A DNA stretch of 64,000 nucleotides from an uncultured Gammaproteobacteria bacterium (GCA_964427735.1 CAYRUS010000001.1:98173-162172), one strand, 5' to 3'. Positions 15,581 through 36,474 are shown, counted from the first letter of the stretch. Numbers and translations are program-made. Notes: generated by a model not told the origin, from the sequence alone.

Positions 15581-15692
15581 CCCCAACTTTTAGCTTCAAA
15601 TAACTATATCAATTTGATCAAAACTTAACGGGATTATAGCTTCTCACACCGTTTTTTGCCGGTTTTTGCTTTAGGGGATATAATTGTATTAA

Positions 15693-16043
15693 GTGAATAC
15701 AGAGAATTCAGAACAATCAATCAAAAGAGATTATTCTTCACTTAGTGAAGAGGAAAAGATAAGAGCAATATTGGGGGCAGTTATAGAACCAGTATCAAAA
15801 CAATTTGCTCTAGATCTGAGTGGTATAGATTACGACAGGTTAAATACTGAGATGAAAGAAAGAATTAATAATTTATTTGATGATGATGAGGTTAAAAAAG
15901 AAATTGTGGATGGTGACTGCAAATATATTCTAAATGAGCTAGGAAGAGAAAGACTTGCCGGAAACATCGATATGAGATCTGTTCATAGTATTATTGCCGA
16001 TAAATTATGGGGGGATCTTTTTCCTGATGATAACTTAGATTAA
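15693..16043 (+). CDS. hypothetical acidic protein (116 aa)
   Basis: It is an isolated ORF downstream of tRNA-Asp. I recognise no motifs. Confidence 0.35.
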   Translation: MNTENSEQSIKRDYSSLSEEEKIRAILGAVIEPVSKQFALDLSGIDYDRLNTEMKERINNLFDDDEVKKEIVDGDCKYILNELGRERLAGNIDMRSVHSIIADKLWGDLFPDDNLD

Positions 16044-16235
16044 AATAAGTTTAAGAAATTTCTTCTAAACTCTTCCAATTTAGCTCTCTCAACGATTCTA
16101 TAATTTCGTACTCTTTAGTGAGAGAAACTATAATTGAATATATACCACATTTAACAGAAAGTATAGAAAATTTTAAACTTTAATATTAGTAGGATAGTTA
16201 TATTTGTTTTTTAGGATAAAACCGTATCTAAGATT

Positions 16236-17234
16236 TTACTCTTCCATTTCCATAAAACTTTGCAAATCATGTATTCCTATTCCCTTATAATTTGGGTTAT
16301 TTTTATACTCTTTGTCTAATTTCATAATTTCAGTAAAAAACTCACTTTTACCCTTTCTATAAAAAGAAACATTTTCTTCTTCTACTTCAGCGGTTTCCTG
16401 ACCAACAACGACATCAACATCTAAATTATTTTTCGTTAAATAATCAAATTCACCTTTAACTAAATTTATCGATCCATTTTCACCTTCTGCAAAATCACGA
16501 TAATCCATAATGAACACAAATGTATCTGGACGTTTGTTTAAAATATCAAATAAATGATAACCCAAATTTTTTCTGCTCTCATTATAAGTCACCTGCGGAA
16601 TTACTTCACTGTTATCAAACCAAAAAGGGACAGCAAAGCCAATTTGCAACCCCCTTTCCTGTTTATTATTTTCTATTATTTGATCAACTAAAGTAAGATA
16701 TTCAATCGAATAAACCTGTTTTTTACTTTCAAAGGTATTTAAATTGTAAAATTCGATATCAAATAAAATTCCATCAATATTTGAATCTTCCGAATTTTTA
16801 TTAAACTCATTCACATAATCTATAAGCAGTTCTGGAATATACCAATGGGACGACCTTCCCCATTCTTGATGTCCAGCTAGCGCAATAACTGAAATTTTAT
16901 TCTTTTCAGCTTCATTTATAAAATATTTGAAATTAGATTCAAATCTGCCTTTTAATTGGTTTCTTTTCTCTTCCTCCAACTCATGAACATCAACATATTC
17001 ATCAATACTTACATACAATATTGTTATCCCCTCCTGCTTAGCAAAAGAAATATATTCCTTGATTTCTTCATGAGTCAAAGACGATGGTGAACTCCATATA
17101 AAAGAACTCAAATTCCCTTCAAGTCTATTTATTATTTTTTGATTACTTCGTGAACCTATATTATTCAAATTTTCATTTAAGAAAATAACTGCAAATAAAG
17201 CAATCAATAAAAATGATAACTTTTTTAAATCCAT
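16236..17234 (-). CDS. secreted glycoside-hydrolase-like (GHL/TIM-barrel-like) protein, partner of the GT2 synthase
   Basis: The start was moved to the ATG at 17232-17234, which has an AAGGT Shine-Dalgarno (MDLKKLSFLLIALFAVIFL... is a signal peptide). The segment ILYVSIDEY...GILFDIEFY resembles the GHL10/DUF4015-type putative polysaccharide hydrolases found next to EPS synthases. Confidence 0.45.
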   Translation of the reverse strand: MDLKKLSFLLIALFAVIFLNENLNNIGSRSNQKIINRLEGNLSSFIWSSPSSLTHEEIKEYISFAKQEGITILYVSIDEYVDVHELEEEKRNQLKGRFESNFKYFINEAEKNKISVIALAGHQEWGRSSHWYIPELLIDYVNEFNKNSEDSNIDGILFDIEFYNLNTFESKKQVYSIEYLTLVDQIIENNKQERGLQIGFAVPFWFDNSEVIPQVTYNESRKNLGYHLFDILNKRPDTFVFIMDYRDFAEGENGSINLVKGEFDYLTKNNLDVDVVVGQETAEVEEENVSFYRKGKSEFFTEIMKLDKEYKNNPNYKGIGIHDLQSFMEMEE

Positions 17235-17247
17235 CTTACCTTTAGAA

Positions 17248-18900
17248 TTAAGTTCCAAAGTTATTCATAGTTACTTCCACAACCTCTTCAATTGATTGCT
17301 TATAGACTTTTATATAATAAACTTCTCCATGATCTACGATTAATGGAAGATCTTTGGATAAAACTTCGTTGGCATAACCAAGTTCCTTTTCATTAAAGGA
17401 AATCTTTTCCTCCTTTAAGTATTCAGTAAGAGCTTTCATCGATACTCTATTATTCTCATCCCCTGGCTCAACTTCAATTACATAGTATTCTTTATTTGTT
17501 TGTTTTATTCCTTGGTTTGTATTTTCGATTTGTGTTGATACTCCCGCCACACTAGGGCTATTTTTCCTATCCACATAAACAGGTGTTAGCAATTCTTTAC
17601 CCTCAATAATATCCCTGGATGTACTGTACACTTTAGCAGATGCAACCTGGACAAGTTCAACCGGTTCATAATCTCTTCCTAAAATTAACCTTTGGGCGAA
17701 ATTAACATTAAAAATTAAAATTAATGATATAACTGAAACTATTACAGAGTGATTTTTAATTGTATTTAAGGCATATCGAGGGTTTGAAATTCTTACCTTA
17801 TTTGGATTATGTTTAAACCTAATTTTTCCAATATTCCCAGTTTTAAGCACCGTATTCATGTATCTAAAAGCACCAAACCATACTAAGACAAGAACCTGAA
17901 AAAGAGCGTAGAAGGGAAACAATATCATCCATTTATTTCTAACTTTCCAGTTGGCTAGATAAGTAACTATTACATATAAAGCAAGAATAAAAGGTAAGAG
18001 ATGTATATGACTTACCATTTGAATCAGCTTAAATGGCAAAAGAAAGTAAATAATGAAAGAAAAGTAAATAAAGTGAAAAGGATGTTTTAAGTTGTGGTCC
18101 ATATTTACAATAGAATGCCTAAACATACCACACATCCATGAGAATCTCTGCTTAGCCCACTTTTTAAATGTCGGCGGAATATCTGTGTAAAAAACCATTG
18201 GAATATGCCCAACTTTGTACCCCATCATGTCAGCCAATTTTCCTATTTCTACATCGCCCCCATTAAAGAATAATGAGTGATTTATCATTATCGACTCCAT
18301 AACACTTCTTTTTGCTACCATTCCAGCTCCGCTTGTCAGCCATGGATAAATAAGCCTTGCCTGCATAGCAATGTCATATTCAATTCCCTGCAAATGCTCC
18401 ATAATTGTCTCTCTTTGTGTTGGAAGTACCTTTACAGAAGCAATATCAAAATTTCTCTCTTCCATTGCACCACAAAGTACTCTTAAATCTCCATCTACAA
18501 AAGTATCAGCATCAATAAAGATTACATATTTTTCCCTCAGCCCGGAAATTGTGTCTTTAAGAACAGCATCATGAGCAAGAAGAGTTTTATTATAGATTGC
18601 CCAAGGGTTTTTAGACTTAGTTCCTACATTTGAATAATTAATTCGAAACCCGTAATTTTTAGCTATTTCTTTTAAAGATTTATAAAATTCTTTGCTTTCA
18701 TTAGTTGTTGTACACAATACAACATTCTCACTGTACTTTTTCAAAAAATCCAAATTGCTTAAGTATTTTGTGTCATTAAATATAGGAACTAGTAAAGCAA
18801 AATCTGAAGATCGCACTTTTACAGCATCAAGGTCAAGAGGCTTAATAAAATTAGCTCTAACAGTCGCAAAATCAAATATGGTTAGTAATGGTAATAACAT
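17248..18900 (-). CDS. processive family-2 glycosyltransferase (PgaC/cellulose-synthase-like polysaccharide synthase) with a C-terminal extracytoplasmic domain
   Basis: DxD is present (IFIDADTFVDGD) and so is the Q(Q/R)xRW motif (KQRFSWMCG). Multiple TM helices lie after the catalytic domain. A ~150-aa soluble C-terminal tail follows. The likely ATG is at 18898-18900; the track start at 18915 is a TTG. Confidence 0.75.
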   Translation of the reverse strand: MLLPLLTIFDFATVRANFIKPLDLDAVKVRSSDFALLVPIFNDTKYLSNLDFLKKYSENVVLCTTTNESKEFYKSLKEIAKNYGFRINYSNVGTKSKNPWAIYNKTLLAHDAVLKDTISGLREKYVIFIDADTFVDGDLRVLCGAMEERNFDIASVKVLPTQRETIMEHLQGIEYDIAMQARLIYPWLTSGAGMVAKRSVMESIMINHSLFFNGGDVEIGKLADMMGYKVGHIPMVFYTDIPPTFKKWAKQRFSWMCGMFRHSIVNMDHNLKHPFHFIYFSFIIYFLLPFKLIQMVSHIHLLPFILALYVIVTYLANWKVRNKWMILFPFYALFQVLVLVWFGAFRYMNTVLKTGNIGKIRFKHNPNKVRISNPRYALNTIKNHSVIVSVISLILIFNVNFAQRLILGRDYEPVELVQVASAKVYSTSRDIIEGKELLTPVYVDRKNSPSVAGVSTQIENTNQGIKQTNKEYYVIEVEPGDENNRVSMKALTEYLKEEKISFNEKELGYANEVLSKDLPLIVDHGEVYYIKVYKQSIEEVVEVTMNNFGT

Positions 18901-19007
18901 AATTCGTGGGTACAACAGAATTTAGAACCTAACTCAGTGATATGGGGTAATTATTGGGTAAGAATGATGTAATAAATTGAAGTAGTGCTTGGTATTATAT
19001 ATAGTGA

Positions 19008-19033
19008 AGTTCTAAACTCATCCCATTTATTCC
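19008..19033 (+). repeat. 26-bp direct repeat, copy 1 (AGTTCTAAACTCATCCCATTTATTCC)
   Basis: It is identical to 20233-20258. A CCCGTT-N6-AACGGG hairpin and a T7 run follow it. Confidence 0.8.
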
Positions 19034-19103
19034 GCCCCGTTACCCTCAACGGGACGACCTTGGAACTTTTTTTACTCTATAACAAAATGACTTTACAAAA
19101 AAA

Positions 19104-20129
19104 TTATCTGTTATTAAATAACTCAATTTCTGCAGATCTAATCACATACGACCAGTTTCGTTCATAAGCAGCGATAGGTCCAGTACTATCGTAAGTTATT
19201 TGCATTAAAGTATCTTGATTGTCACCATTTTTACTGGTTACCGAACATGGAACAAGAACTTCATCTAGAGCACCATCACTCATTATTAAGAAAGGAGTTC
19301 CACTTGCCAAATCGAATCCTGTGTTTAACTTCAATTTCCTTTTACGCACCCCCACAATTACAGGAGTATTTTCATTATTTCTTCTAGCAACTTCGGCGGT
19401 GATTCTATAAAAACTTTGCAAGTCTCCAACTGTAGGATATCTTCTAGTTAATGATACCCATTGGCCTTCAGAAAACCATTCAATTAGATAATTTGGATTA
19501 GATTGCAACAAAGCCATAGTGGTTTGAGTCATCCTTCGTCCTTTTTCTACAAATTCTTCTTGCACCTTACCTTCATCATATTCAATATTAAAATGACCAT
19601 ATATGCTTGCTATCAGAGTTTTTTTTGTCTCTTGCGGCAATAAAGGATGTGGTATCAAAGTAAGTTGACCGTCTCTAGATATTTTTAAATCTACTGGTAA
19701 TACATTGTGTCCTTCACCGATAGATAGGTTGAATAATTTAACAGTTTCTGGTTCCTCTTTTGATATAACCCAATCAAATCTTGCTAACTCAACTTTACCC
19801 TGACTTACTAGACTCATAGAATGCATTGAGTAGGGACTAGAAATATATTTACTTTCCAAATACAAGAAATCGGAGCACCTCTTGTCAATTCCTTGGATAT
19901 GGTAATTGAAATTGCCTGGTAATTTCCTTTTACCATCTATCGGAATATAAAGTTTCGAATGATCTCTTAAACTTAACTCAGTTACTAATATGTCCAAAAA
20001 GTGTCTGGCAATTCTTTCTCCTTCATTTTTGTACTCATCGACTATAATCTTGTTTAAGGTCTGAACATTATCACTAAACGGATGTTCTATAGGATCATCA
20101 CTGAGAAAATCACCATTTTCATTTGACAT
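19104..20129 (-). CDS. hypothetical cytoplasmic protein (341 aa), exactly bracketed by the 26-bp direct repeats
   Basis: The frame is intact and the ATG is at 20127-20129. It has no signal peptide or TM helix. I recognise no family. Confidence 0.5.
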   Translation of the reverse strand: MSNENGDFLSDDPIEHPFSDNVQTLNKIIVDEYKNEGERIARHFLDILVTELSLRDHSKLYIPIDGKRKLPGNFNYHIQGIDKRCSDFLYLESKYISSPYSMHSMSLVSQGKVELARFDWVISKEEPETVKLFNLSIGEGHNVLPVDLKISRDGQLTLIPHPLLPQETKKTLIASIYGHFNIEYDEGKVQEEFVEKGRRMTQTTMALLQSNPNYLIEWFSEGQWVSLTRRYPTVGDLQSFYRITAEVARRNNENTPVIVGVRKRKLKLNTGFDLASGTPFLIMSDGALDEVLVPCSVTSKNGDNQDTLMQITYDSTGPIAAYERNWSYVIRSAEIELFNNR

Positions 20130-20232
20130 AACTTATTATAAGATAAAACACATTAATAATCTAATATTATGGGTTTTTAATAAGATGCTGTAAGTTGGAA
20201 GGTGATAGTAGTTGCGATTAAGTATAAAAGTT

Positions 20233-20258
20233 AGTTCTAAACTCATCCCATTTATTCC
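20233..20258 (+). repeat. 26-bp direct repeat, copy 2
   Basis: It is a perfect copy of 19008-19033. It lies in the 5' region of the 160-aa gene. Confidence 0.8.
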
Positions 20259-20283
20259 TCTATCATTTGATATAATTCAGGTA

Positions 20284-20694
20284 ATGGAAAAGTTAGAAAC
20301 GTTTGATTTTGGAAAAGGTCCTGAACTTGTTGTTTTTGAAGAAGCAATGAAAGTAACTAATGGTGTCGAATGTGATGTTTATAGTGTGAAAGACAATGTC
20401 GATAAGGATTTAGGAATTATAAGAGTTGATTTAGGCAAAAGTACACCACACCAAAAAGTTATTAACGGGGAAAAAACTATCGAGGGGCATATATCCGGTG
20501 ATGGTTTTTTAATTATAAAAAAAGTCAACGGGAGTGAGGAAATTTACCCAACAACAGAAGGAGTAAATCAGCAGTTTGAGCTTGTTGTTGAAATAGGAGA
20601 AACCATGCAATGGATAGCTGGCGAAAATTCTTCACTTGAACTATTTGAGATATGTATACCCCCATATGAAGATGGTAGATTTGAAGACTTGTAA
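20284..20694 (+). CDS. hypothetical small beta-rich protein (possibly cupin-like)
   Basis: The likely start is the ATGGAAAAG at 20284, because the track ORF start at 20212 lies inside the repeat. There are no TM segments. Confidence 0.35.
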   Translation: MEKLETFDFGKGPELVVFEEAMKVTNGVECDVYSVKDNVDKDLGIIRVDLGKSTPHQKVINGEKTIEGHISGDGFLIIKKVNGSEEIYPTTEGVNQQFELVVEIGETMQWIAGENSSLELFEICIPPYEDGRFEDL

Positions 20695-20723
20695 AATACT
20701 CCTGTCTTTCAATATCTGATCAT

Positions 20724-21722
20724 TTATATATTTAATTTATAAAAATCAACGAGTTTTTCTTTTGAAATTTTACCTCTATATTCGGGAAAATTGTTTAAAT
20801 CTGCCAGAGAAATCTTGCCCACTAACAACCTCAACTTCTCATCATCACTTAGGCTTTTTATTTTTTGTTGATGATAAAAATACATACTTGGTTTCATAAT
20901 ATCCCCAGGCTTTGATGTGTCAATAAATCCAAATTTATGGCGGATAGCTCTTTGCCAAGCTAGTTCTTCATTGAACCCAATATCAACTAAATAGTTAAAC
21001 ATTTCCCTAAAAGAAAACTTCACACCTACCTCTGTTACCGCATATTCTGCTGCGTGCTGGAAAAGAGATGCTTCACCGAACTTTCCCGTATAGTCTTGAA
21101 AATAGGTGGCTAATCCTTCCTCAGTAGGAAGATACTCATTGCTTTTTTCTATATTGTTATGTGCTCCATTTTCAAACCTTATTATATGCAATAGCTCGTG
21201 CCTTACCTCACCATCAACAGAAAAATAAGTAAGTTCTGCATATTTACTAACATGAATTAACTTGTCCGCGTATTTAGGTCTAAAGAAAAACCCATGTTCA
21301 TCGATTAGTTTTACATTGTATTTTAGATCTAGTTGCTTAAAAGCATTTTCAAATTGAGATTTGATTTCCACCCAGGTTGCTTTAGTAGGTAAGACAGGCT
21401 TTGATTCCAAAATTGATTTGGAGTATTTTAACAATTCCTCCTCTAGTCTAGTGTCAAACACTTTAGAGGCTGCGTTTATTATTTGGCTGTTATTTTGATT
21501 TAAAATTGCCTCAACAAGATTGCTATATTTACTTTCCTCAAAGTAATTCTTACAAATGTCTTTATTTTTGTTCCACAGGTAATCGAAAACAGGATTATAA
21601 GTTTTTGATTTAAAAAACTTTACCTTTTCTTCATTAATATTTATAGGTGTAAGAACATTAAGTAAATTCATTTTATTTGAAGTATAACACTTGGAATTAT
21701 GGATAAATGCAAATATTGACAA
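20724..21722 (-). CDS. putative HExxH metallopeptidase-like protein with a QEGLA-like motif (DUF1704-like)
   Basis: RHELLHII is an HExxH motif and PTEEGLATYFQ is a QEGLA-like motif. The track start is a TTG; an alternative ATG is at 21671. Confidence 0.4.
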   Translation of the reverse strand: MSIFAFIHNSKCYTSNKMNLLNVLTPININEEKVKFFKSKTYNPVFDYLWNKNKDICKNYFEESKYSNLVEAILNQNNSQIINAASKVFDTRLEEELLKYSKSILESKPVLPTKATWVEIKSQFENAFKQLDLKYNVKLIDEHGFFFRPKYADKLIHVSKYAELTYFSVDGEVRHELLHIIRFENGAHNNIEKSNEYLPTEEGLATYFQDYTGKFGEASLFQHAAEYAVTEVGVKFSFREMFNYLVDIGFNEELAWQRAIRHKFGFIDTSKPGDIMKPSMYFYHQQKIKSLSDDEKLRLLVGKISLADLNNFPEYRGKISKEKLVDFYKLNI

Positions 21723-21750
21723 ACTTTAGCAAAAAGTGCGATCATGAGAT

Positions 21751-22347
21751 ATGAGGAATAAACTGCCTGTAGCATTAATATTATTAGTGATACTTTTTAG
21801 CATAATTCTTGTTTATATCGTTAAAAATAATCCAGAGGGACTGCCTCTAAGCAATAATTCAAAAGCCACATTGGATAGGCAAACTGTGAAAGTCAGCACT
21901 CAAGCTTCAGCGGATTCAAGCATAGAACAGGCATACGAAATTTCTTACACTCCAAGTTCCAATCGCACAGCACATACTGTCCTTTCTGAACCGGCAACAA
22001 GGCTTTTAATATCTGATGAATCGTTTGAACTAACAATTGGATTTCCTGTAGACGGTGGTGCAACTCCACTTGAATTTGTACCTGATTCACAACAAATTGA
22101 AAGTTCTAATCTTGGAACTCTGCATAGAATCACGATGGAAGAAGGATATATCTATACAAGCAATATTCCAAGCCCATGTAGCGAAAGTTCAGATGACTAT
22201 CCTGTCTGCTTGATGAATCTTATTGAGTTGGATGATTCAGAAAGCATAGATCCTCATTCTATAACAGCTTATTGCACGACAACTTCACCAGAAAATGTAG
22301 CTAAATGTGACAATGTTATCTCTTCTCTGGAAGTCAAACAAATTTAA
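21751..22347 (+). CDS. membrane-anchored/secreted hypothetical protein (198 aa, 4 Cys)
   Basis: It has an N-terminal TM/signal helix (LPVALILLVILFSIILVYIV). Confidence 0.45.
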   Translation: MRNKLPVALILLVILFSIILVYIVKNNPEGLPLSNNSKATLDRQTVKVSTQASADSSIEQAYEISYTPSSNRTAHTVLSEPATRLLISDESFELTIGFPVDGGATPLEFVPDSQQIESSNLGTLHRITMEEGYIYTSNIPSPCSESSDDYPVCLMNLIELDDSESIDPHSITAYCTTTSPENVAKCDNVISSLEVKQI

Positions 22348-22598
22348 ATTCGACCCTCAACCTTTATCGCATAATCCTATATTTTATCTTAGTGAAGTGT
22401 GTGAAAATTTCTAGATATAAAACTTAGCCTCAATTGAACACATTTATTGTTCAATATTTCAGTATTGTGAATACCATGAAAACAGACTTACTTGTGCTGT
22501 GTCCGATATAGTTTTTTGAAAAACTTATCTTTTTAACCTACAAGAAAAATTATTGTTTATTTTTATAAGTAGTGTTTAAAAGATTTTTATTTTACCTA

Positions 22599-22626
22599 TT
22601 GACAAAAAAATTATAGTGATATAAAT
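22599..22626 (+). promoter_or_regulatory. sigma70-like promoter candidate for the LysM gene
   Basis: TTGACA lies at 22599-22604. TATAAA/ATAAAT lies at 22620-22626, 15-16 bp after it. This is about 55 nt upstream of the ATG. Confidence 0.25.
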
Positions 22627-22679
22627 TTGCGACAACTGCTTATCTGCTCCACATTACCTGACCCAATAAAAATATTTAA

Positions 22680-23357
22680 ATGCCAGATTTAAAAGAGACA
22701 TTAAAAAGAATAAAACTAAATGAATCAACAGTAAGTATGATCATTGGAGTTATTGTAATTCTTGTAGTCGGAGTACTTGTATCACGGTATTTTGCAGGTC
22801 TAGACACAGGAACGACGCTTCCTCCCACAAACATAGAAGAACAAAGCCAACAAAAAACAAGAATCGTTGAAGAAGGAGAAACCTTATGGGAAATTGCAGA
22901 AGATGAATTCGGATCAGGATATAACTGGGTTGACATTGCTGAAGAAAATAATCTTACAAGCCCTGGTGACATTGCAGCAGGACAAGAGTTAATCATACCT
23001 AGTGTTGAACCAAAATTAGCCACAGTTGAAAATATGGATCAAGAGCCTACTATTGCACCAACTGAAGAGCCAACAACTACTCCTACAATAGAACCTCAAG
23101 CGACTGATGCACCTGTAGAAACAGCAACCCCAATGCCGGTAGAAGATAAACTCGCTGGAGGCTCAACCACAGGAAACGTAGAAGGTTTAGCTCACACTTC
23201 ATCTGGAGAATATACGGTTGTGCGAGGAGACAATTTATGGAAAATTGCTGAGAGTGTATACGGTGATGGTAATAGATGGACAGATATCGCAGAGGAGAAT
23301 AACTTGGCAAACCCACAAACTATTCACGCAGGAAACATCTTAGTGTTACCTGAATAA
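22680..23357 (+). CDS. membrane-anchored protein with two LysM peptidoglycan-binding domains
   Basis: It has an N-terminal TM helix. The two LysM repeats are GETLWEIAEDEFGSGYNWVDIAEENNL...ELIIP and GDNLWKIAESVYGDGNRWTDIAEENNL...NILVLP. A Pro/Thr-rich linker lies between them. Confidence 0.8.
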   Translation: MPDLKETLKRIKLNESTVSMIIGVIVILVVGVLVSRYFAGLDTGTTLPPTNIEEQSQQKTRIVEEGETLWEIAEDEFGSGYNWVDIAEENNLTSPGDIAAGQELIIPSVEPKLATVENMDQEPTIAPTEEPTTTPTIEPQATDAPVETATPMPVEDKLAGGSTTGNVEGLAHTSSGEYTVVRGDNLWKIAESVYGDGNRWTDIAEENNLANPQTIHAGNILVLPE

Positions 23358-23428
23358 TGAAAAAGCTTCATAGGAATACAATTATTCTGTATAATTAGAT
23401 AACTTAAAACTCTATATTTTTCTATCTT

Positions 23429-23500
23429 GCGGTGGTAGTTCAGTGGTAGAATGTCTCCTTCCCAAGGAGAAGGTCGAGGGTTCGAATCCCTTCCACCGCT
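23429..23500 (+). tRNA. tRNA-Gly (CCC)
   Basis: The acceptor is GCGGTGG/CCACCGC and the anticodon stem is TCTCC/GGAGA. The anticodon loop is TTCCCAA and the T-loop is TTCGAAT. Confidence 0.85.
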
Positions 23501-23514
23501 CCTAAGAGAATATT

Positions 23515-24222
23515 ATGCAAGCAAAACTAATTAAAGTCGTAGAAGAATCTTTCAAAACAAAAACATTCATTTTTGAACCAGAAAAAAAAGTCACATTCCT
23601 TCCCGGTCAATACTTTTATTTTACTCTACCTGAGCTGATTGCCGAGGATCCACGCGGACAAACTAGACATTTTACTTTATCTAACTCACCAACCGAAGGG
23701 TCCTACATACAGTTCACTACAAGAATTAGTGAATCAGGATACAAACAAACATTAGATAAATATAAAATTGGGCAACTAGTGGAAACTACCGGACCAAACG
23801 GAACATTTATTTTGGATGAAAAAGAGGTAGACACTCATCTTTTCTTGGCAGGTGGAATTGGAATAACTCCATTTCGATCATTCATTAAATATGGATTAGA
23901 CAAAAAACTCCATAAATACTATCACCTTATTTATTCAGACAGCAACATTGATAACATGGCTTTTTATGATGAACTTAAAGACCTCTCAACTGCTAAAAAT
24001 TTTGACTTCGACATCACACTTACTAAACCCGATAATATTTGGAGGGGTAATACGGGTAGAATATCAAAGGAACTGATAGTAATACTCACTAGAGATAAAA
24101 CTGATATTAAAAACTGTGTTACTTGGTTATGTGGTCCACCTGCGTTTGTGAATGCAATGGAAGATATTTCAATGGATTTAGGTATAAAAGACATCAGAGT
24201 AGAAAAGTTTACTGGATATTAG
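23515..24222 (+). CDS. FNR-like FAD/NAD(P)-binding oxidoreductase (ferredoxin-reductase-type FAD-binding domain)
   Basis: RHFTLSNSP matches the RxYS FAD-binding motif. LFLAGGIGITPFRSF matches the NAD-binding GGxGxxP motif. The protein is 235 aa. Confidence 0.7.
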   Translation: MQAKLIKVVEESFKTKTFIFEPEKKVTFLPGQYFYFTLPELIAEDPRGQTRHFTLSNSPTEGSYIQFTTRISESGYKQTLDKYKIGQLVETTGPNGTFILDEKEVDTHLFLAGGIGITPFRSFIKYGLDKKLHKYYHLIYSDSNIDNMAFYDELKDLSTAKNFDFDITLTKPDNIWRGNTGRISKELIVILTRDKTDIKNCVTWLCGPPAFVNAMEDISMDLGIKDIRVEKFTGY

Positions 24223-24288
24223 ACATTTATTCTGCTGGTGATATAATTTAGCCTATTAATAGTTACCAGTTAGGCTTAACCATAAATT

Positions 24289-24361
24289 GCCTACGTAGCT
24301 CAGTTGGTAGAGCAACGGTATCGTAAACCGTGGGTCGTCAGTTCGAATCTGACCGTAGGCT
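24289..24361 (+). tRNA. tRNA-Thr (CGT)
   Basis: The acceptor is GCCTACG/CGTAGGC and the anticodon stem is ACGGT/ACCGT. The anticodon loop is ATCGTAA and the T-loop is TTCGAAT. Confidence 0.85.
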
Positions 24362-24401
24362 CAAAGTATAAATAATATGAGTTTTTGATAATAAATAAAG
24401 T

Positions 24402-25115
24402 ATGCCAAGATACTCAAGAAGAGCGACAGTGGAAGAGAAGAGAAACAGAAGAAGTGCATTTTTATATATACTTCTTAGCATATTAGCTGTTTTAGTCTTA
24501 TTTTTCTTTGGAATTACAGCAATTGCGAAATTTGCAGGCTTTATATCCGATTTAAAACAAAGTAGCGAACCAATAGGTGCAGAAGACACAACACCTCCTG
24601 CTCCCCCGCGATTTACAAATATACCCGAATATACCAATGAATCAGAAATAAGCATAGAGGGGAATGCAGAACCAGGATCTACATTAGTGCTTGAGGTTAA
24701 TAATCAAAAAAAGGAGCAACTAGTAGGAAACGATGGTAGGTTTTCCTTAACTGCAGAACTAACTGGTGGAGAGAATACACTAAATGCCAAAGCAATTGAC
24801 AACGCAGGAAACGAAAGCCAATCGACTGAAACTTTTAGAATAGTTGTTGACAAAAACCCACCTGATTTAACAATTACCTCACCACAGGACAAAAGCAGTT
24901 ATTACGGATCAAGAGAAAGGCAGCTAGTAATCGAAGGAGAAACAGAAGGTGACGCAAATATAACTATAAATGACAGAATTGTAGTTGTAAATTCAGAAGG
25001 TCATTTTACATACGCAATTTCTTTACAAGAAGGAGAAAATATTTTTACTGTTATTGCCAAAGATAAAGCAGGAAATGAAACAAAACAAGAATTTACTGTG
25101 AATTTTTATCCTTAA
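24402..25115 (+). CDS. membrane-anchored protein with two bacterial Ig-like (Big) repeats
   Basis: It has an N-terminal TM helix. Two repeats are similar: ...GENTLNAKAIDNAGNES and ...GENIFTVIAKDKAGNET. Confidence 0.5.
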   Translation: MPRYSRRATVEEKRNRRSAFLYILLSILAVLVLFFFGITAIAKFAGFISDLKQSSEPIGAEDTTPPAPPRFTNIPEYTNESEISIEGNAEPGSTLVLEVNNQKKEQLVGNDGRFSLTAELTGGENTLNAKAIDNAGNESQSTETFRIVVDKNPPDLTITSPQDKSSYYGSRERQLVIEGETEGDANITINDRIVVVNSEGHFTYAISLQEGENIFTVIAKDKAGNETKQEFTVNFYP

Positions 25116-26259
25116 TACCAAATCCTAGTACTATTGCTAAAATACCCATTACAAAAGCATAAAACATAGAATTAACAAAAAAGCTATGAACAAAGACAGA
25201 TAGCAAAATTGATTTTACGCTTAAATCTCTTTTTGAAGTTTTAGTCCACACAAAATACATAAAAGATAAAAATATGATTAATCCAATTACACCGGTCGTA
25301 GCCAAAATTAATAATAAACTTGAATCAGCGCCATAGCAGGCATGAGAATCTGGGCTAGTTAAGCTACTTAACTCTCGAACAGTACAAATATTATTGTAAC
25401 CAACTCCAAAAAGCGGTGAACTTTTCCATATCTGAAGTGTCTCTGTATAATTTTCTAGTCTTGCATAAATACTAAATTCTCTTTCAAGTTTTACTCCTTC
25501 CCCACCTCTTCTAGGTAATAAAATAACAACTAAAGGTAAAAAAAGTAAAACAAGAAGATACTTGCGATATTTTTTAGTATTGAACAAAAAGTAAATAATT
25601 CCAACTAAAAATGCTACATAGCTTGCTCTTGAGTAGGTAAAAAGCAAAGTGATAAAAAGAAATAACGAAATAAAAGCATATTGTTTGCTGCCAATTTCCA
25701 AAAATTTTCTTATCCCTAAAAAAACACCCACAACCAGAATTATCCCCATAAACCCAGGATCAAAAAAGCTTCCAGTAAGTCGATACAAGTGATCATCCCA
25801 ACCTAGATTTTTAAGTATTGTTAAATCCGGAATAAATATATATTGATACCAGCCAATAGTTGCAGCAATCACAATAGATAAAAGCAAATAATCAAAAGTT
25901 TGTTCCTTATTTTTATCTGAATTAACTCCAGTAATAAGTACAAAAAACGAAAAGTAAGCAAATAGCCTAATTAAATAAAGAATCCCAATAAAACTAATTT
26001 CTATGCCTGAATTAAAGTAATTTATTAAATTTATTAAAAATGAAAACAAAGCATAACCAATAAAGAAATAAAAAATTTTAAACTTGTTGAAGCTTTGTCT
26101 GAAATTTACATAAAAAATACATAAAAATACAATTAGATCACTAATTAATATTGACCTAAAATTAGGAAAGTTTAGCTTTGCAATTTGTCCCAAGGGCAAA
26201 AAAGAGAGGAATAATAAAACAAGTATAGAAGCTATCTGTTGTTTTTTTGTATCAACCAT
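25093..26259 (-). CDS. O-antigen ligase/polymerase-like (Wzy_C domain) membrane protein
   Basis: The protein is polytopic and 388 aa. It carries the Wzy_C-type motif FTYSRASYVAFLVGIIYF. The ATG is at 26257-26259. Confidence 0.65.
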   Translation of the reverse strand: MVDTKKQQIASILVLLFLSFLPLGQIAKLNFPNFRSILISDLIVFLCIFYVNFRQSFNKFKIFYFFIGYALFSFLINLINYFNSGIEISFIGILYLIRLFAYFSFFVLITGVNSDKNKEQTFDYLLLSIVIAATIGWYQYIFIPDLTILKNLGWDDHLYRLTGSFFDPGFMGIILVVGVFLGIRKFLEIGSKQYAFISLFLFITLLFTYSRASYVAFLVGIIYFLFNTKKYRKYLLVLLFLPLVVILLPRRGGEGVKLEREFSIYARLENYTETLQIWKSSPLFGVGYNNICTVRELSSLTSPDSHACYGADSSLLLILATTGVIGLIIFLSFMYFVWTKTSKRDLSVKSILLSVFVHSFFVNSMFYAFVMGILAIVLGFGIKDKNSQ

Positions 26260-26984
26260 AATTTACTCCAAGATAGATATGAGTGAAAACTCATCATCAT
26301 TGCCGCTACAAAACCTACTAACCCATCTAAGATAGTTAGTCTAAATGTTAAGTTATAAATAAGCTTACTGGGAGGATAAATTAATATTTTTAGTAGACTA
26401 GATTTTTTCCCTTCTTCTTTATTGGCTAGTGCATGAAGGGAAGAAAAATAATTAATACTATCTAAAAACCCACTCAAGGAGCTGTGAGGATAGTGAATAA
26501 GTTCTCCTTTTAGTTTTCCTATCCTTCCTGTAACTCTCCATATCTCGTGTACTCTTCTAACCCATTTCCCTTGTGTTCTAAGAGCCAGACGAAGAATTTT
26601 TTTCTTACCAAACTCCCCATATCTCATTTCTTTACCAAACAAAACATCTTTACGAGTCACAAAAAACCCTTCCTTTTGTGTAAATGGGTCGCTAGTTTTT
26701 TGTATAATTTCTTTTTTTAAACTATCGGAAACCACTTCATCTGCATCCACAAATAATACCCATTTACCTTTTGCTTTTTCCAAACCATAGTTTCTTTGCG
26801 AAGCAAAATCATCTGCTAAACTACGCTTATAAATCTTTGCTCCGTATTTTTTTGCAATCAAAACTGTATTATCTGCAGAGTTATCATCTACAATAATTAT
26901 CTCGTCAGCAAATTTAACACTCTCGAGTGTATCTGAAATGCTTTTTTCTTCGTCTTTCGTGAGAATAACAACTGTTAAATTCAT
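26232..26984 (-). CDS. family-2 glycosyltransferase
   Basis: The N-terminus VVILTKDEEKSISDTLESV...IIIVDDNSADNT and the DxD in VLFVDADEV are GT2 features. Confidence 0.8.
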   Translation of the reverse strand: MNLTVVILTKDEEKSISDTLESVKFADEIIIVDDNSADNTVLIAKKYGAKIYKRSLADDFASQRNYGLEKAKGKWVLFVDADEVVSDSLKKEIIQKTSDPFTQKEGFFVTRKDVLFGKEMRYGEFGKKKILRLALRTQGKWVRRVHEIWRVTGRIGKLKGELIHYPHSSLSGFLDSINYFSSLHALANKEEGKKSSLLKILIYPPSKLIYNLTFRLTILDGLVGFVAAMMMSFHSYLSWSKLWLIQKNNR

Positions 26985-26993
26985 AATATAAAA

Positions 26994-28238
26994 TTAAGAA
27001 TATTTAAATAATTTTCTAACAAAATAAACACTTACCGGTATAGAAAATATAACAGCCAATGTAGTTGCATACGCTGCTCCAATAATCCCATATTCAGAAA
27101 CCAAAGGAATTATAATTAAACTCATTGCAACAAGTTGAATGATATTAATTTTCACTAATATATCTTGTCGTTCGATTGATAGAAACAAGCTATTTGGGAT
27201 TGCACTAATTGCACTTACTATACCAAATATAGATAGTACCTTCAGAACTCCTGTTGCTTCGAGCCACTGATTCCCCAAAAGGATTAAAATTAATTGCTCG
27301 GGGAAAAGATACATTATCAATCCTGCAGGAATTATTATCAGTATTAGTACTAGAGATAGTTTTAAAAAGTAATTTTTTAGTTTTTCTTTATCATCTTTTA
27401 TCTTTGAAAAGATTGGAAATGCTACTTTCCCTGCTATTTCCATAATCTCTATTAAGATCAGTGTTGATATCTTGTATGCATTCTGATACAAACCTAGTGC
27501 ATTGGCAGAAAGTAATCTACCTACAACCATATCGTCACCTTGTTTTATAAGATAATGCACTATTCCTGCAGCAGTAATCCACTTTCCTACTTTAGTTATT
27601 TCTTTTGCTTGGTTTAAATCAAAAGCTATTGTTGGATTTGGTCTCACAAACAGATGAGAAATAATCACTTCAAAGAAAACACCAAAAATAATAGCCAAAA
27701 TGAGTGCATCAGCAGTTCTCAAGATTGCGGTGAGTATTACAGCCAAAGCAGATTCTACAAAAAAAGTTACCAAGTAAAATGTAAATTCTTTATTGAATTC
27801 TAAATTTTTTCTAAACCTTATTATTGAAGGATTTATAAAACCTCGAAGTATTGGCACTAAGCTTATTAACATTAACAATCTTTGAGTTTCACTTGAGTTA
27901 AAAAAGGAAGCTATAAATGGCGAACTTATATATAAGATAAAACCTATTAAAAAACCTCTAATAATCGAAATTACCCAAGCAGTATTAAGATACTTTTGTA
28001 AGCTTTCCTTTGTTTGGATTAGAAAAACGTTCACACCTGTCTCTGTAAAAACTTCTAAAAGTGCTAAAACCAAGGTAGCTATGGCAAATATACCAAATTG
28101 ATGAGGGGTTAGAAGTCTAGCTAGAATAGCCACTTTTAAATAGCCCACTAGCCTTTGGGACAGTCGCAATAATGATATCCATTTAATTCCTGAAAAAATT
28201 TCTTGCCTTACCTTCATTATTTGTTTAATTATATACAA
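26994..28238 (-). CDS. Wzx-like polysaccharide flippase (MOP superfamily)
   Basis: The protein is 414 aa, with about 12 TM helices and the polysaccharide-biosynthesis-protein architecture. It sits in the glycosyltransferase cluster. Confidence 0.65.
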   Translation of the reverse strand: MYIIKQIMKVRQEIFSGIKWISLLRLSQRLVGYLKVAILARLLTPHQFGIFAIATLVLALLEVFTETGVNVFLIQTKESLQKYLNTAWVISIIRGFLIGFILYISSPFIASFFNSSETQRLLMLISLVPILRGFINPSIIRFRKNLEFNKEFTFYLVTFFVESALAVILTAILRTADALILAIIFGVFFEVIISHLFVRPNPTIAFDLNQAKEITKVGKWITAAGIVHYLIKQGDDMVVGRLLSANALGLYQNAYKISTLILIEIMEIAGKVAFPIFSKIKDDKEKLKNYFLKLSLVLILIIIPAGLIMYLFPEQLILILLGNQWLEATGVLKVLSIFGIVSAISAIPNSLFLSIERQDILVKINIIQLVAMSLIIIPLVSEYGIIGAAYATTLAVIFSIPVSVYFVRKLFKYS

Positions 28239-28255
28239 ATATCCTTATAACTGCT

Positions 28256-29182
28256 CTATTTAGCTTTGATCCCTACTAAGAAGCCAGTCATTACAGCAAT
28301 ATCACTCAGAATTTGTAGTACCGGTCCCCAAACTCCTGCGGCAGTACTTTTATGTATTATGTAAACTTTCCAAAATGCCCAAAAAATATAAGTTAAAATA
28401 ATAAACACTCCGATAGGGGGTAGAGCAAAAATTAAATAGAAAAATAGTAAATATCTCAAAAAAATGCTAAGTACTTTTATGTTATGTGACGATAAACCTT
28501 TACTTTTGTTATAAAACAACCTTGTTTCGGCATCCCCTTTTGCATATGAGTACATTTTATATACAAATTCATTTATCTTGTGGGGCATTTTCCAGATAAC
28601 TACAGCATCTTTTACCCGAGTAATATTTTTGTTCATTTGTGTAAGTTTATAGACAAACATAGTGTCTTCTGCTGTATCAGAAAGATCTTCTGGGAATCCT
28701 CCCACCTCAGCCCAAATTTTACTTTTGAAGGCAATTGAGCGAGCAGATGGCAAATATTTAGCATTAAATTTTAAAGCTGGAACACCAAGAAAAACACTGC
28801 ATGCTTTTTGAAAGGAGGTTTCAACCAACATCTCATAAAATCCTGCCACTACCTCTGTGTTTTTGTTTGCAAAAGGTAGGGTAATTTTTTCCAACCAATC
28901 TATTTTTGGAACGCAACCTGCATCTGTAACTGCAATTATTTCATTTTGTGCATTTTTTATGGCAATATTTCTTCCTTCTGCTCTGGAGCTTTTTTGTACT
29001 ATTAGTTTTATTAATTTGTTTTTTAATTGGAATTCTTTAACTATTTTAGCTGTATCGTCTGAAGATTCAGAATCGACAATGATAATCTCATCTGGTTTTT
29101 TTGATTGATTAAGAAGTGAGTTTAACAATAACGCTATGCTATTTTCTTCATTATATACAGTAGTACATACTGAGGATTTCAT
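28256..29182 (-). CDS. family-2 glycosyltransferase with C-terminal TM helices
   Basis: The N-terminal region MKSSVCTTVYNEENSI...IIIVDSESSDDT and the AVTDAGCVP segment are GT2 features. Hydrophobic helices lie at the C-terminus. Confidence 0.75.
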   Translation of the reverse strand: MKSSVCTTVYNEENSIALLLNSLLNQSKKPDEIIIVDSESSDDTAKIVKEFQLKNKLIKLIVQKSSRAEGRNIAIKNAQNEIIAVTDAGCVPKIDWLEKITLPFANKNTEVVAGFYEMLVETSFQKACSVFLGVPALKFNAKYLPSARSIAFKSKIWAEVGGFPEDLSDTAEDTMFVYKLTQMNKNITRVKDAVVIWKMPHKINEFVYKMYSYAKGDAETRLFYNKSKGLSSHNIKVLSIFLRYLLFFYLIFALPPIGVFIILTYIFWAFWKVYIIHKSTAAGVWGPVLQILSDIAVMTGFLVGIKAK

Positions 29183-29970
29183 AAACTGCTAATTGTATCA
29201 AATAAATCAGTAGAAGGAGTTATGTTACTTATAAATACTTGTGCTTTAAAACTACATGGACACTCAAGTTCAATACCTGTATTACCTTCTTTTAATTTTC
29301 CGCCTTTTTCATGAAAGATATTTATAACTCTAAATTTACCATCTTCGTATTTAAGATTCCCATGAATGCCTCCTATTGGACTGTCTGCCGAAATTGCTGA
29401 CACTTCATATTCTTCATCAAGAGCGAATTTATAAGTCCAATTTCTCTTAGAAAACTCTTTCTGATAATAGGAAGTAAGAGATTTAATGACACCTGTAACT
29501 TCTTGATTTGTGTTATAAACACTCTCTGTTTCATAAGCTATACCATCCAGCATTATTTCTCCTGATCTAGTCTCTTCTGATAACTTGAGATTGGAGTAAT
29601 AGACTTTGTTTATACCTGTTATATTTACATCATTTAAAGCTTCCCATTCAAATTTTTTGGGGAGATCAGGAATATCGTCAAGATAAAACTTGTCATTTAC
29701 TGGATTATTTTTTGCTTCACCTGGCTCAAACAACTGGATGTTATTCTCATTTTTGTTTGTGCTTATATTTGTTTTTTCAATTATATGCTTCGCAGGATAA
29801 TATGATATGAATAAAACTAATGGGAATAGAAAGAATACGCCAATTACAGATACTAATTTTTTGGGACTAGATAAAAAAGATTTCATTGTTGAACGTACGT
29901 CTGATTTACTTGACTCATTGGGAGTGCTATTAGCCTCTTCTTTAATAAAATTTTGTTCATTTATTTCCAT
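29179..29970 (-). CDS. membrane-anchored hypothetical protein in the polysaccharide locus
   Basis: It has one N-terminal TM helix (LVSVIGVFFLFPLVLFISYY). I recognise no motifs. Confidence 0.4.
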   Translation of the reverse strand: MEINEQNFIKEEANSTPNESSKSDVRSTMKSFLSSPKKLVSVIGVFFLFPLVLFISYYPAKHIIEKTNISTNKNENNIQLFEPGEAKNNPVNDKFYLDDIPDLPKKFEWEALNDVNITGINKVYYSNLKLSEETRSGEIMLDGIAYETESVYNTNQEVTGVIKSLTSYYQKEFSKRNWTYKFALDEEYEVSAISADSPIGGIHGNLKYEDGKFRVINIFHEKGGKLKEGNTGIELECPCSFKAQVFISNITPSTDLFDTISSL

Positions 29971-29979
29971 CTGTCCTTA

Positions 29980-30963
29980 TTATGACCACAAATCTAAATA
30001 TTCCACAACTAAATTTTGCCAAGTTTGTTTTTTTAACCAATATTTAGCTTCTGCTGGTGTTTGATTTGGATTTCCTTGATTTTGGTATATCAAATCAGAA
30101 ATTTCGTTTGATGAATTTGTAATTTTAATCCAATTCTTAAATGGGGACATTTTTAAATAATCTTTTCTTAATGAGTTATCAAAAGCTGAAATAACCTGAC
30201 AACCATTAGCAAGTGCCTCCAAAATAGTTAAGTAGCCTGATACGTAGCAAATTTTTGATTTACTCAGAAATGGTTGTGGGTCAGTAAAACCGTGAACTTG
30301 TCCGTACATTTCACAAGTTTTTCTAAGCGGTCCATCACCTACAAAATCAGCTTTTATTTTTTTGTTTTGCTCTAGTGCAGCGAGTAATATAGGAAGACCT
30401 GTATCTTTATTTAGTCTGCCAACATAAACAAGGCCTTCTTTTTTTGATTCTTTCTTTTTTGGTATATCTACTGCTCCGAAAATAATTTTGTCGCCGTGAA
30501 CGTCATAGTATTTTTCTATAAATTTACCTACCAAAATTGTTTTGTGAGCCAGTTTGTTCGAGATCTTTTTTAGTATGATGTTTTTAAGTGGTATTGGATA
30601 TTCCCCCTCCCACCCGTGCATGGTTAAATAGATTTTCAATTTAGGTTTTATTAATTTTATTGGGAATAGCCATATCATTACATCATGAACGTGTATAATG
30701 TTACTTTTTTTGAGTAAAGTGATGTTTTTGATCATCCAGTACCAGATTTGAAGAAGTCCGATTATTTTTTTTGAAGGAAATTCAAATCTAATAATTTTTA
30801 TCCCATTTAATGTTTCTGTGGCTTTTAAGTTTTTGTTATATTTGTGTGTAATCACAGTAATTTCATGTCCTTGCAAAAGTAATTCTCCAGCAATCTTTTC
30901 AACATGTTTCTCAACCCCTCCGATAGAGGGATTATATCTTCTTGTTATGAATAAAATCTTCAT
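29980..30963 (-). CDS. GT-B fold glycosyltransferase (family 1/4-like)
   Basis: RRYNPSIGGVEKHV is a GT4-like N-terminus. FVGDGP is in the C-terminal half. Confidence 0.7.
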   Translation of the reverse strand: MKILFITRRYNPSIGGVEKHVEKIAGELLLQGHEITVITHKYNKNLKATETLNGIKIIRFEFPSKKIIGLLQIWYWMIKNITLLKKSNIIHVHDVMIWLFPIKLIKPKLKIYLTMHGWEGEYPIPLKNIILKKISNKLAHKTILVGKFIEKYYDVHGDKIIFGAVDIPKKKESKKEGLVYVGRLNKDTGLPILLAALEQNKKIKADFVGDGPLRKTCEMYGQVHGFTDPQPFLSKSKICYVSGYLTILEALANGCQVISAFDNSLRKDYLKMSPFKNWIKITNSSNEISDLIYQNQGNPNQTPAEAKYWLKKQTWQNLVVEYLDLWS

Positions 30964-31694
30964 TTTTTGACTGCAGTTACTACAATATCTGATGCACCGA
31001 AAATAGGTATTGTAAGATTGTCAACTAAGGTAATTAAATTAACGAATGGTCCTTTCACAAATTTAACTAAAAATCCAAAAACAGGAATAACAAACAAAGA
31101 GTTTCTAATTACCCCTTCCCTTTCTACAATATTTGTAATTTTAAAGCCCTCTTCTAAAAAAAGCTTTGATATTATTCTCTTATCATACCTTCTTAAATGG
31201 CCTACCTTTTTATCAAAATTTGCAGTCAATCCTAATTTAACAAGCGGAGCATTTTTACTAGGAGTAGTTAAAAATAAAATACCATCTTCATTTAAAAGTG
31301 AATGAAAAATTTTTATTAATGCTCTGTCATCTTCTACATGCTCAATTACTTCAGAGCATATTATTAAATCAAATTCATTTTTTTTAGAAATAAATTTTTC
31401 TAAAGTAAAAAAAGTTATATTCTTCAATTGAATATTTTTAAGATTATTTTCCACTGCATTAATAGCACTAGGTGATATATCTACCCCAGTAACTTTGTGA
31501 CCAAAACTTGAAGAATAAAATGACAAAGTACCTACCCCACATCCATAATCCAATATTCTTAATTTATTTTTTCTTTCTAATAATTTTGATAGGTCTTTAG
31601 TCAATAATTTATAAGTAAAATTATTCTCATCTATAATTTTTTCCTGAACTTTGGTCTTTTTATGAAATTTGTTATAAAAATTAATAGAATTCAT
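30960..31694 (-). CDS. class I SAM-dependent methyltransferase
   Basis: ILDYGCGVGTLS is SAM-binding motif I. DLIICSEVIEHV is the motif II/post-II region. Confidence 0.75.
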   Translation of the reverse strand: MNSINFYNKFHKKTKVQEKIIDENNFTYKLLTKDLSKLLERKNKLRILDYGCGVGTLSFYSSSFGHKVTGVDISPSAINAVENNLKNIQLKNITFFTLEKFISKKNEFDLIICSEVIEHVEDDRALIKIFHSLLNEDGILFLTTPSKNAPLVKLGLTANFDKKVGHLRRYDKRIISKLFLEEGFKITNIVEREGVIRNSLFVIPVFGFLVKFVKGPFVNLITLVDNLTIPIFGASDIVVTAVKK

Positions 31695-35631: not shown

Positions 35632-36474
35632 TTAATTGGAAGTAATGGATTTATATACTTTTTGCAATCTTTCTTCTGTTTCTTCGGGAGTGCCTTTGAA
35701 AATCATCTGAACCCTTGTCTCACGACGACTTCTGTTGATTTTTACTGCTGTCTTTTGACCATTAGTAGCCAGCTTTGTTAAAGTCTTATTAAGCTCTTCT
35801 TGCATCTTATCTATTTCTTCAGACAATATTCTCACTCTTTGCTTTGGATCAGATTTTTTAGGTGGCTGCTGAGATTTGTGCTTCATTCGCCTTGCTAATT
35901 CTTCTGCTCTTCTTACAGAACCACTTTCTCGAAGAATTGTTTTGTATGCATCAATCATCAAATCTTCGCTATCTATGGCTGCTAAAGCTCTAGCATGTCC
36001 TTCTGAAATCAGACCAGACAACAGTCCATCTTTAAGAGCATCAGGAAGAGTCAAGAGTCTCATCGAGTTTGAAACATATGCAACGGATTTTCCAATCTTT
36101 ACTGCAATCTCAGAGGTAGTTAGCCCAAAATCTTTTTGCAACTTTTCAAAACCTTTTGCACGATCAAGAGCATTAAGATCAACCCTTTGAACATTCTCTA
36201 CTAATGCCATCTCCAGCATTCCTTTGGGGGTAGTTTCTCTTATTACAGCAGGAACATGGGTTAAACCTGCTAGCTTAGAAGCTCTCCATCTTCTTTCTCC
36301 TGCAATAATCTGAAAACCAGCCGGGGTTTTTGCAACAACTAGTGGTTCCAAAACTCCATGCTCTTTTATAGAATCAACTAAGTCAACAAGGCTTTCAGGA
36401 GTAATAGCACCACGAGGCTGCAAAGGATTGGGTTGAAGTTCATTTACGTTTATCTGTATTATTTCTTCTGCCAT
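35632..36474 (-). CDS. parB: ParB/Spo0J-like partition protein (no parA adjacent)
   Basis: LQPNPLQPRG and GERRWRASKLAG are the ParB box motifs. A helix-turn-helix follows. Confidence 0.8.
   Translation of the reverse strand: MAEEIIQINVNELQPNPLQPRGAITPESLVDLVDSIKEHGVLEPLVVAKTPAGFQIIAGERRWRASKLAGLTHVPAVIRETTPKGMLEMALVENVQRVDLNALDRAKGFEKLQKDFGLTTSEIAVKIGKSVAYVSNSMRLLTLPDALKDGLLSGLISEGHARALAAIDSEDLMIDAYKTILRESGSVRRAEELARRMKHKSQQPPKKSDPKQRVRILSEEIDKMQEELNKTLTKLATNGQKTAVKINRSRRETRVQMIFKGTPEETEERLQKVYKSITSN

Follow-up and report, generated by a model that had tools for sequence, protein, structure and literature searches.

An exact 26-bp direct repeat around an orphan gene in a tRNA-adjacent island: a candidate junction of a single-gene insertion

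Genomic islands that encode no recombinase and lie between direct repeats can be excised and integrated by host functions, independently of RecA (PMC5426353, PMC3191183). The H47 island of E. coli excises via its flanking direct repeats without RecA and without an element-encoded enzyme, and a cat gene located between repeated FRT sites is excised likewise (PMC5426353). The locus described here, found in a stretch of 64,000 nt that was analysed as a whole (hereafter the window), resembles islands of the H47 type in that a segment encoding no recombinase of its own lies between direct repeats. It differs in scale and in the kind of evidence, since the H47 island measures 13 kb, possesses long imperfect att repeats with several homology blocks and was shown experimentally to be mobile, whereas the unit described here measures 1.2 kb, is flanked by a single perfect 26-mer and is known from sequence alone. 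The surroundings recall tRNA-adjacent islands: a block of 7.1 kb starts 1 nt past tRNA-Asp, is missing in relatives and contains accessory genes, but it carries neither an integrase nor a distal tRNA repeat, shows no compositional deviation and has a 16-nt inverted repeat.

Two systems of small gene units offer further points of comparison. As in integron cassettes, one or two co-oriented genes make up each unit, a short site recurs between the units in direct orientation, and the first repeat copy forms together with its flank an imperfect palindrome of ~60 nt just 3' of the open reading frame, which loosely resembles attC. Unlike integron cassettes, the locus shows no GTTRRRY/RYYYAAC cores and no intI, the unit apparently has its own promoter, and only copy 1 is palindromic. 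Xer-dependent elements (IMEX, and the pdif modules of Acinetobacter plasmids) are likewise small and often contain a single gene, with sites of ~28 bp that are recombined by a host enzyme in trans; in contrast to these sites, the 26-mer lacks an 11-6-11 dyad (4-6/11, which is the background level) and lies ~15 kb from parB, near the origin. Little is known about gene gain in the small genomes of Patescibacteria (CPR), and the locus provides a concrete, base-resolved example, in which an orphan gene is enclosed by a perfect 26-bp duplication inside a 7-kb block inserted between a tRNA gene and its neighbour gene. If the repeat were an active recombination site, it would point to host-driven capture of single genes; if it were only a scar or a regulatory repeat, the locus would represent ordinary island mosaicism.

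The exact repeat and the unit between its copies

The original prediction had described perfect 26-bp direct repeats, identical, in the same orientation and 1.2 kb apart, and our analysis confirmed both the coordinates and the strand of the two copies of AGTTCTAAACTCATCCCATTTATTCC (copies 1 and 2, Table 1), whose start-to-start distance is 1,225 nt. In a census of direct and inverted exact repeats of at least 13 nt, the 26-mer was the longest in the window and the only one of its length, followed by 2 repeats of 17 nt, 5 of 16 nt, 10 of 15 nt, 65 of 14 nt and 200 of 13 nt. The accompanying claim that such a repeat is not due to chance held as well, as none of 100 dinucleotide-preserving shuffles yielded a match to the 26-mer, even with up to three mismatches allowed. 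The two-copy arrangement is 100% identical in two independently assembled Logan contigs (SRR7082966 and SRR7082976), hence it is not an artefact of one assembly. Moreover, the identity breaks off sharply at either end of the 26-mer, the flanks being at background: the left 20 nt of copies 1 and 2 match at 7/20 positions and the right 20 nt at 4/20, against a null of ~5.5/20. Sharp edges of this kind are predicted by a crossover core or a target duplication, and not by a diverged segmental duplication or a selected operator. Copy 1 lies 70 nt past the stop codon of orf341 and 107 nt upstream of the GT2 ATG (18900, minus strand). Copy 2 is non-coding. It precedes the orf341 ATG (20129, minus strand) by 103 nt and, on the other side, the p136 ATG (20284, plus strand) by 25 nt, which places it in the 5' region of the next gene, as had been predicted.

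Table 1. Features of the repeat locus and the surrounding island (positions counted from the first nucleotide of the window)
Feature	Position	Strand	Basis
Lineage-specific block of ~7.1 kb, tRNA-Asp 3' end to LysM start	15584-22679		comparison with five relatives
Island-end imperfect inverted repeat (16 nt), left arm, TTCAAATAACTATATC	15595-15610	+	15/16
Repeat copy 0, degenerate, TCTTCTAAACTCTTCCAATTTAGCTC	16061-16086	+	19/26, mismatch scan
GT2 family glycosyltransferase, 550 aa	17248-18900	-	domain match
Promoter-like TTGAAG-17-TATAGT, ending 2 nt before copy 1	18977-19005	+	consensus match only
Repeat copy 1, exact 26-mer	19008-19033	+	exact match, repeat census
Hairpin CCCGTT-ACCCTC-AACGGG at the copy-1 end of the unit	19036-19053		sequence, RNA fold
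orf341, 341-aa protein with no annotated function	19104-20129	-	sole gene between the exact copies
Promoter-like CTTACA-17-CATAAT upstream of orf341, within the unit	20166-20194	-	consensus match only
Repeat copy 2, exact 26-mer	20233-20258	+	exact match, repeat census
Extended -10-like TGATATAAT between copy 2 and the p136 ATG	20268-20276	+	sequence
p136, 136 aa, no assigned function	20284-20694	+	homologue search
Island-end inverted repeat, right arm, TTCAAAAAACTATATC on the minus strand	22505-22520	-	15/16

The segment between the exact copies comprises 1,199 bp and, in agreement with the original prediction, an ORF scan found the minus-strand orf341 to be its only gene. The protein had been described as having no recognisable family, which proved correct for Pfam, PADLOC, PHROGs, NCBIfam and PDB sequences, all of which returned no match. 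A word-seeded search of 5.8 billion proteins recovered only orf341 itself, while HMMER, run exhaustively against 1.84 billion cluster representatives, revealed one homologue, P0060 (350 aa, 32% identity, E = 4e-47). The two proteins align end to end and possess common motifs (e.g., WFSEGxW, RYPT and RSAE); hence, orf341 is a genuine gene. A profile built from both sequences found no match among PDB sequences, and AlphaFold2 models of orf341 were too poor for use (pLDDT 35 from the single sequence and 37.6 from the two-sequence alignment). The distribution of the gene is extremely patchy: the 1.84 billion representatives include two members, whose genomes and contexts differ. P0060 is encoded at a locus of a genome with 42.5% GC (L006, GCA_964455555.1) that has unrelated neighbour genes, and its flanks contain no direct repeat of more than 14 nt. 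This shows that the repeat is not intrinsic to the gene family. It was proposed earlier that relatives carrying the gene without flanking repeats would argue against an insertion; P0060 is the only such case and, at 32% identity, offers weak counter-evidence. A foreign composition of orf341 was ruled out, as its codon usage and GC content are indistinguishable from those of the other 55 ORFs in the window (codon z = -0.06).

At the copy-1 end of the unit, the hairpin that had been noted previously is present, whereas the T run said to follow it (19067-19073) starts only 13 nt after it; given this gap, the structure is not a canonical intrinsic terminator, and a terminator scan did not call the hairpin. 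The hairpin is part of a 62-nt imperfect palindrome (19007-19068), whose arms (19007-19027 and 19048-19068) are complementary at 16/21 positions, the left arm containing the first 20 bases of copy 1 and the inner stem being formed by the hairpin. Folded as RNA, the palindrome is predicted to form an outer stem of 8 bp followed directly by the U run (-13.1 kcal/mol, z = -2.3); a short plus-strand RNA is predicted at ~19010-19073. A palindromic partner is present at copy 1 only. With the promoter-like site upstream of orf341, the ORF and the hairpin, the bracketed segment has the sequence elements of a complete expression unit; promoter-like matches in the region are not enriched over shuffles.

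The surrounding island and a third copy of the repeat

Regarding the phylogenetic position of the genome, the best named relatives of GT2 and DNA polymerase X belong to candidate division WWE3, Levyibacteriota and Woesebacteria (49-71% protein identity), and this protein similarity places the genome among the Patescibacteria. Relatives at 90% identity or above were not found for any of the eleven island and core proteins looked up, which are all singleton clusters among ~15 billion proteins. In five relatives located by a PolX anchor (L010-L014), the gene order is PolX - tRNA-Asp - LysM - tRNA-Gly, and the distance from the 3' end of tRNA-Asp to the LysM start is 45-75 nt, compared to 7,096 nt in the window, from the end of tRNA-Asp at 15583 to the LysM start at 22680. 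Since the intervening block is missing from 5/5 relatives, it represents a lineage-specific insertion. It contains seven genes (p116, p340, GT2, orf341, p136, p332 and p198; 15693-22347), among which only GT2 has a family match, and these findings bear out the earlier description of the region as an accessory island bounded by tRNA genes. The five relatives share a conserved AAGGAGG ahead of the LysM start; the LysM gene of the window shows instead a TTGACA-17-TATAAAT-like site of its own ~70 nt upstream.

The island adjoins tRNA-Asp and is missing from relatives, as is typical for tRNA-adjacent islands, but it lacks their other hallmarks: no integrase, no compositional anomaly and no distal repeat of the tRNA 3' end were found, the best match to tRNA-Asp in 15700-24400 being tRNA-Gly itself. 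At its ends the island carries an imperfect 16-nt inverted repeat (Table 1), the left arm of which lies 12 nt after tRNA-Asp, with 159 nt between the end of the right arm and the LysM ATG. Only 1 of 300 shuffles of the two boundary regions reached its score of 15/16, and the window contains no other copies of this repeat. Neither a target duplication nor a transposase was found at the island. The 7-kb block may be a non-autonomous transposon-like insertion.

Within the island, GT2 forms a module with p340 (16236-17234), and the two genes are also found together in three relatives (L007-L009), while homologues of p136 and orf341 occur elsewhere singly; hence, the island is a mosaic that has grown by accretion. 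The homologues of GT2 (up to 71% identity) reside in contexts that are not syntenic with the window, and the 58 homologues of p136 (up to 63% identity) in unrelated genomic contexts. A further island protein, encoded on the minus strand at 20724-21722 (315-332 aa), has no family match and exhibits an HELLH motif followed further on by EEGLATYFQ, which may correspond to the HExxH/QEGLA signature of DUF1704 or MATCAP-like metallocarboxypeptidases.

The search for further copies of the 26-mer, which the original prediction had proposed, gave no exact match in GTDB species genomes, JGI metagenomes or IMG/VR. Copies with up to six mismatches were likewise absent from the remaining 60 kb of the window, and the regions preceding the relatives' homologues of GT2 and p136 did not contain the 26-mer. 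With a degenerate 20-mer core, 20 single matches were obtained in metagenomes and 2 in viral contigs, which we rejected as random or coding matches, as they lie in unrelated, mostly higher-GC contigs and the other six positions extend at chance level. A weak match to copy 2 and its flank at 59715-59739 was also dismissed, as it falls within a coding region and is by our own estimate at chance level. Close to the GT2 start, an inverted partial copy of the 5' end of the repeat (TTTAGAAC, 18921-18929) can pair with copy 1 in the 5' UTR predicted for the minus strand; shuffled sequences fold equally well (z = 0.02), and this partial copy is probably due to chance.

Within the island, a mismatch scan revealed a third, degenerate copy of the repeat (copy 0), whose core (16063-16082) matches at 18/20 positions, with a chance expectation of 0.04 in the whole window. 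It is located in intergenic DNA past the stop codons of p116 (at 17 nt) and p340 (at 149 nt). The GT2-p340 module is bracketed by copies 0 and 1 in the same way as orf341 is by copies 1 and 2. The likeness of copy 0 to copy 2 extends beyond the 26-mer: an in-register comparison of the right flanks gives 18/40 matches, among them a TATAAT 12 nt downstream of the repeat that copy 1 lacks, and the left flanks match at 10/20 (P ~0.02-0.03 for either flank). This extended likeness hints that the site could belong to a promoter-like element. No gene follows copy 0 on either strand, and 16105-16235 contains no ATG.

Possible origins of the repeat

We searched the locus for the architectures of known mobile elements. 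Recombinase and transposase domains (Pfam, including Phage_integrase) were absent from the seven island genes, LysM and the ferredoxin-reductase-like (FNR) gene beyond it; nor were such domains detected in 20 ORFs at 24.4-46.8 kb, which comprise a polysaccharide cluster, ParB and division genes. An integron cassette was rejected, as the cores GTTRRRY and RYYYAAC are absent from either strand around copies 0, 1 and 2, the scanned ORFs include no intI-type recombinase, and an attC-like palindromic partner exists only at copy 1. For a Xer/dif module, the 26-mer lacks the 11-6-11 dyad: its best 11-bp dyad scores 4-6/11 with spacers of 6-8 nt, against a null mean of 5.3 (sd 1.05). The parB gene is normally found near oriC. 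Since ParB is encoded at 35632-36474, ~15 kb from the locus, the latter lies near the origin rather than the terminus, which also argues against a site of the dif type; the cumulative GC skew does not change sign there. A tRNA-fragment att site was excluded, as the 26-mer is unrelated to the four tRNAs of the window, which were the only Rfam matches. The core was not found as a phage or plasmid attP either: the exact 26-mer is absent from IMG/VR and the two degenerate 20-mer matches there are unrelated, with flanks at chance level. Finally, the features of an IS, transposon or MITE were not found, as the unit has no terminal inverted repeats, no transposase family match and no further copies in the window or in public collections.

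We consider it about an even chance (roughly 0.5) that the exact 26-mers are a junction duplication, produced when a one-gene unit was inserted by recombination at a promoter-like intergenic site. The junction reading rests on the exact repeat, its sharp edges, the single expression-ready unit and a region that has grown by accretion. The 1.2-kb unit, consisting of the orf341 promoter, orf341 and the 3' hairpin, would have been inserted between the divergent genes GT2 and p136. Most likely, a Campbell-type single crossover joined a circular or looped DNA, which contained the site once, to an identical site of the chromosome; this would yield a product of the form A-core-Y ... X-core-B with identity limited to the core. 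The crossover may have occurred by site-specific recombination, with the enzyme acting in trans, or by recombination at short homology. Stretches of 23-27 bp are about the minimal efficient substrate of RecA-dependent recombination in E. coli. The insertion of orf341 would have taken place inside the mosaic island of ~7 kb, itself inserted earlier beside tRNA-Asp, and the position of copy 0 beyond the GT2-p340 module suggests that the same sequence may have served, or arisen, once before as a module junction.

Several observations bear on this reading. When the unit and one repeat copy are removed in silico, a divergent intergenic region of 158 nt is restored, in which the sigma-70-like site at 18977-19005 faces p136. 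At present, this site points at p136 from a distance, separated from it by the 1.2-kb unit, and faces the palindrome and the T run at the unit edge, an arrangement that lends weak support to an insertion. The presence of copy 0 at the far end of the adjacent module, on the same strand and with 18/20 core matches, likewise counts in favour of an insertion, as do the patchy distribution of orf341 and the precedent of the H47 island, which lacks a recombinase of its own. Against it, the 26-mer lacks the dyad symmetry usual for the core sites of recombinases, and the resemblance of copy 0 to copy 2 beyond the 26-mer is not predicted by simple sequential integration. In the data examined, we saw no circular form, no second insertion and no empty site of the unit. 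As orf341 is compositionally native, any transfer came from a similar genome or is old, and an old transfer fits poorly because the repeat is perfect. The original prediction had proposed att-like or target-duplication ends of a single-gene insertion: the repeat is real and surrounds a self-contained unit, while the implied mobility found no backing, and no recombinase or transposase domain was detected in the unit or the island. An insertion scar is thus plausible, if unproven, and nothing in the sequence speaks for current mobility.

The main rival, which we regard as possible and on balance unlikely, interprets the 26-mer as a recurring cis-regulatory element (for instance, an operator, an activator site or an upstream promoter element) that is kept identical by selection and co-regulates the transcription units it precedes, so that the bracketing of orf341 would be incidental. 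The exact copies lie nearly equally far upstream of two minus-strand starts (GT2, 107 nt; orf341, 103 nt), and all three copies are intergenic and fall within 4.2 kb. Moreover, the TATAAT stands exactly 12 nt downstream of copies 2 and 0 on the plus strand, with weak similarity of the extended flanks, so the regulatory alternative, already raised in the original prediction, gains slightly from the degenerate copy. It is harder to reconcile with such an element that the exact copies agree at every one of the 26 positions and have random flanks, since binding sites rarely constrain every base, and that the 26-mer contains neither the internal dyad nor the direct-repeat symmetry typical of operators. 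In addition, no gene relationship is common to the three copies, as copy 0 lacks a downstream gene and copy 1 lacks the TATAAT, and neither the rest of the window nor the regions upstream of GT2 and p136 homologues provide a further copy. A regulatory role would be compatible with an insertion, which may have duplicated part of a promoter-like element.

A bolder version of the insertion reading, to which we give little credence, would see in the ~26-bp sequence the recombination site of a new gene-capture system of Patescibacteria, whose integrase is not encoded in cis. Expression-ready modules, first GT2-p340 and later orf341, would have been added one after another in head-to-tail order at one site within the tRNA-adjacent island. 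Such a system would work in a manner similar to an integron or a pdif array, while the architecture of its site would be unrelated and its enzyme would act in trans.

Slightly more doubtful still is a target-site duplication. In this reading, a non-autonomous element with a single gene would have been integrated at a staggered cut of 26 bp, made in trans by a transposase or a casposase-like integrase. In its favour, the repeat is exact and lies immediately next to the inserted unit, and the 16-nt terminal inverted repeats of the island suggest that transposon-like events may have shaped the region. The unit itself, however, shows no inverted repeat between its ends at 19034 and 20232, no transposase was found in the unit or the island, and the occurrence of copy 0 at a second junction argues for a preferred and against a random target site. 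To our knowledge, a 26-bp duplication exceeds the ranges of target-site duplications made by transposases, IS elements and transposons; those of casposons measure ~14-15 bp. Finally, chance similarity or an assembly artefact, in favour of which there is nothing beyond the general AT-richness of the window (34% GC), is effectively refuted already by the shuffles, by a next-longest exact repeat of only 17 nt and by an arrangement that is identical in the NCBI record and in two independent Logan assemblies from different runs.

Other features of the window

Downstream of the island, a ferredoxin-reductase-like gene (FAD_binding_6 and NAD_binding_1; 23515-24222) stands alone between tRNA-Gly and tRNA-Thr. 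In one of the relatives (L011) these tRNA genes are 14 nt apart, and hence the gene represents a second single-gene insertion between tRNA genes; the only direct repeat around it, from tRNA-Gly to tRNA-Thr, is the common tRNA T-arm. Both Logan contigs (L001 and L002) break at ~23464, inside tRNA-Gly, which suggests that a repeat or a strain-variable junction is present there in the metagenome. Further downstream, the region 25093-31694 contains a surface-polysaccharide cluster encoding a Wzy-like O-antigen ligase, three GT2/GT4 glycosyltransferases, a Polysacc_synt flippase and a methyltransferase, and this cluster includes the lowest GC content of the window (0.26-0.31).
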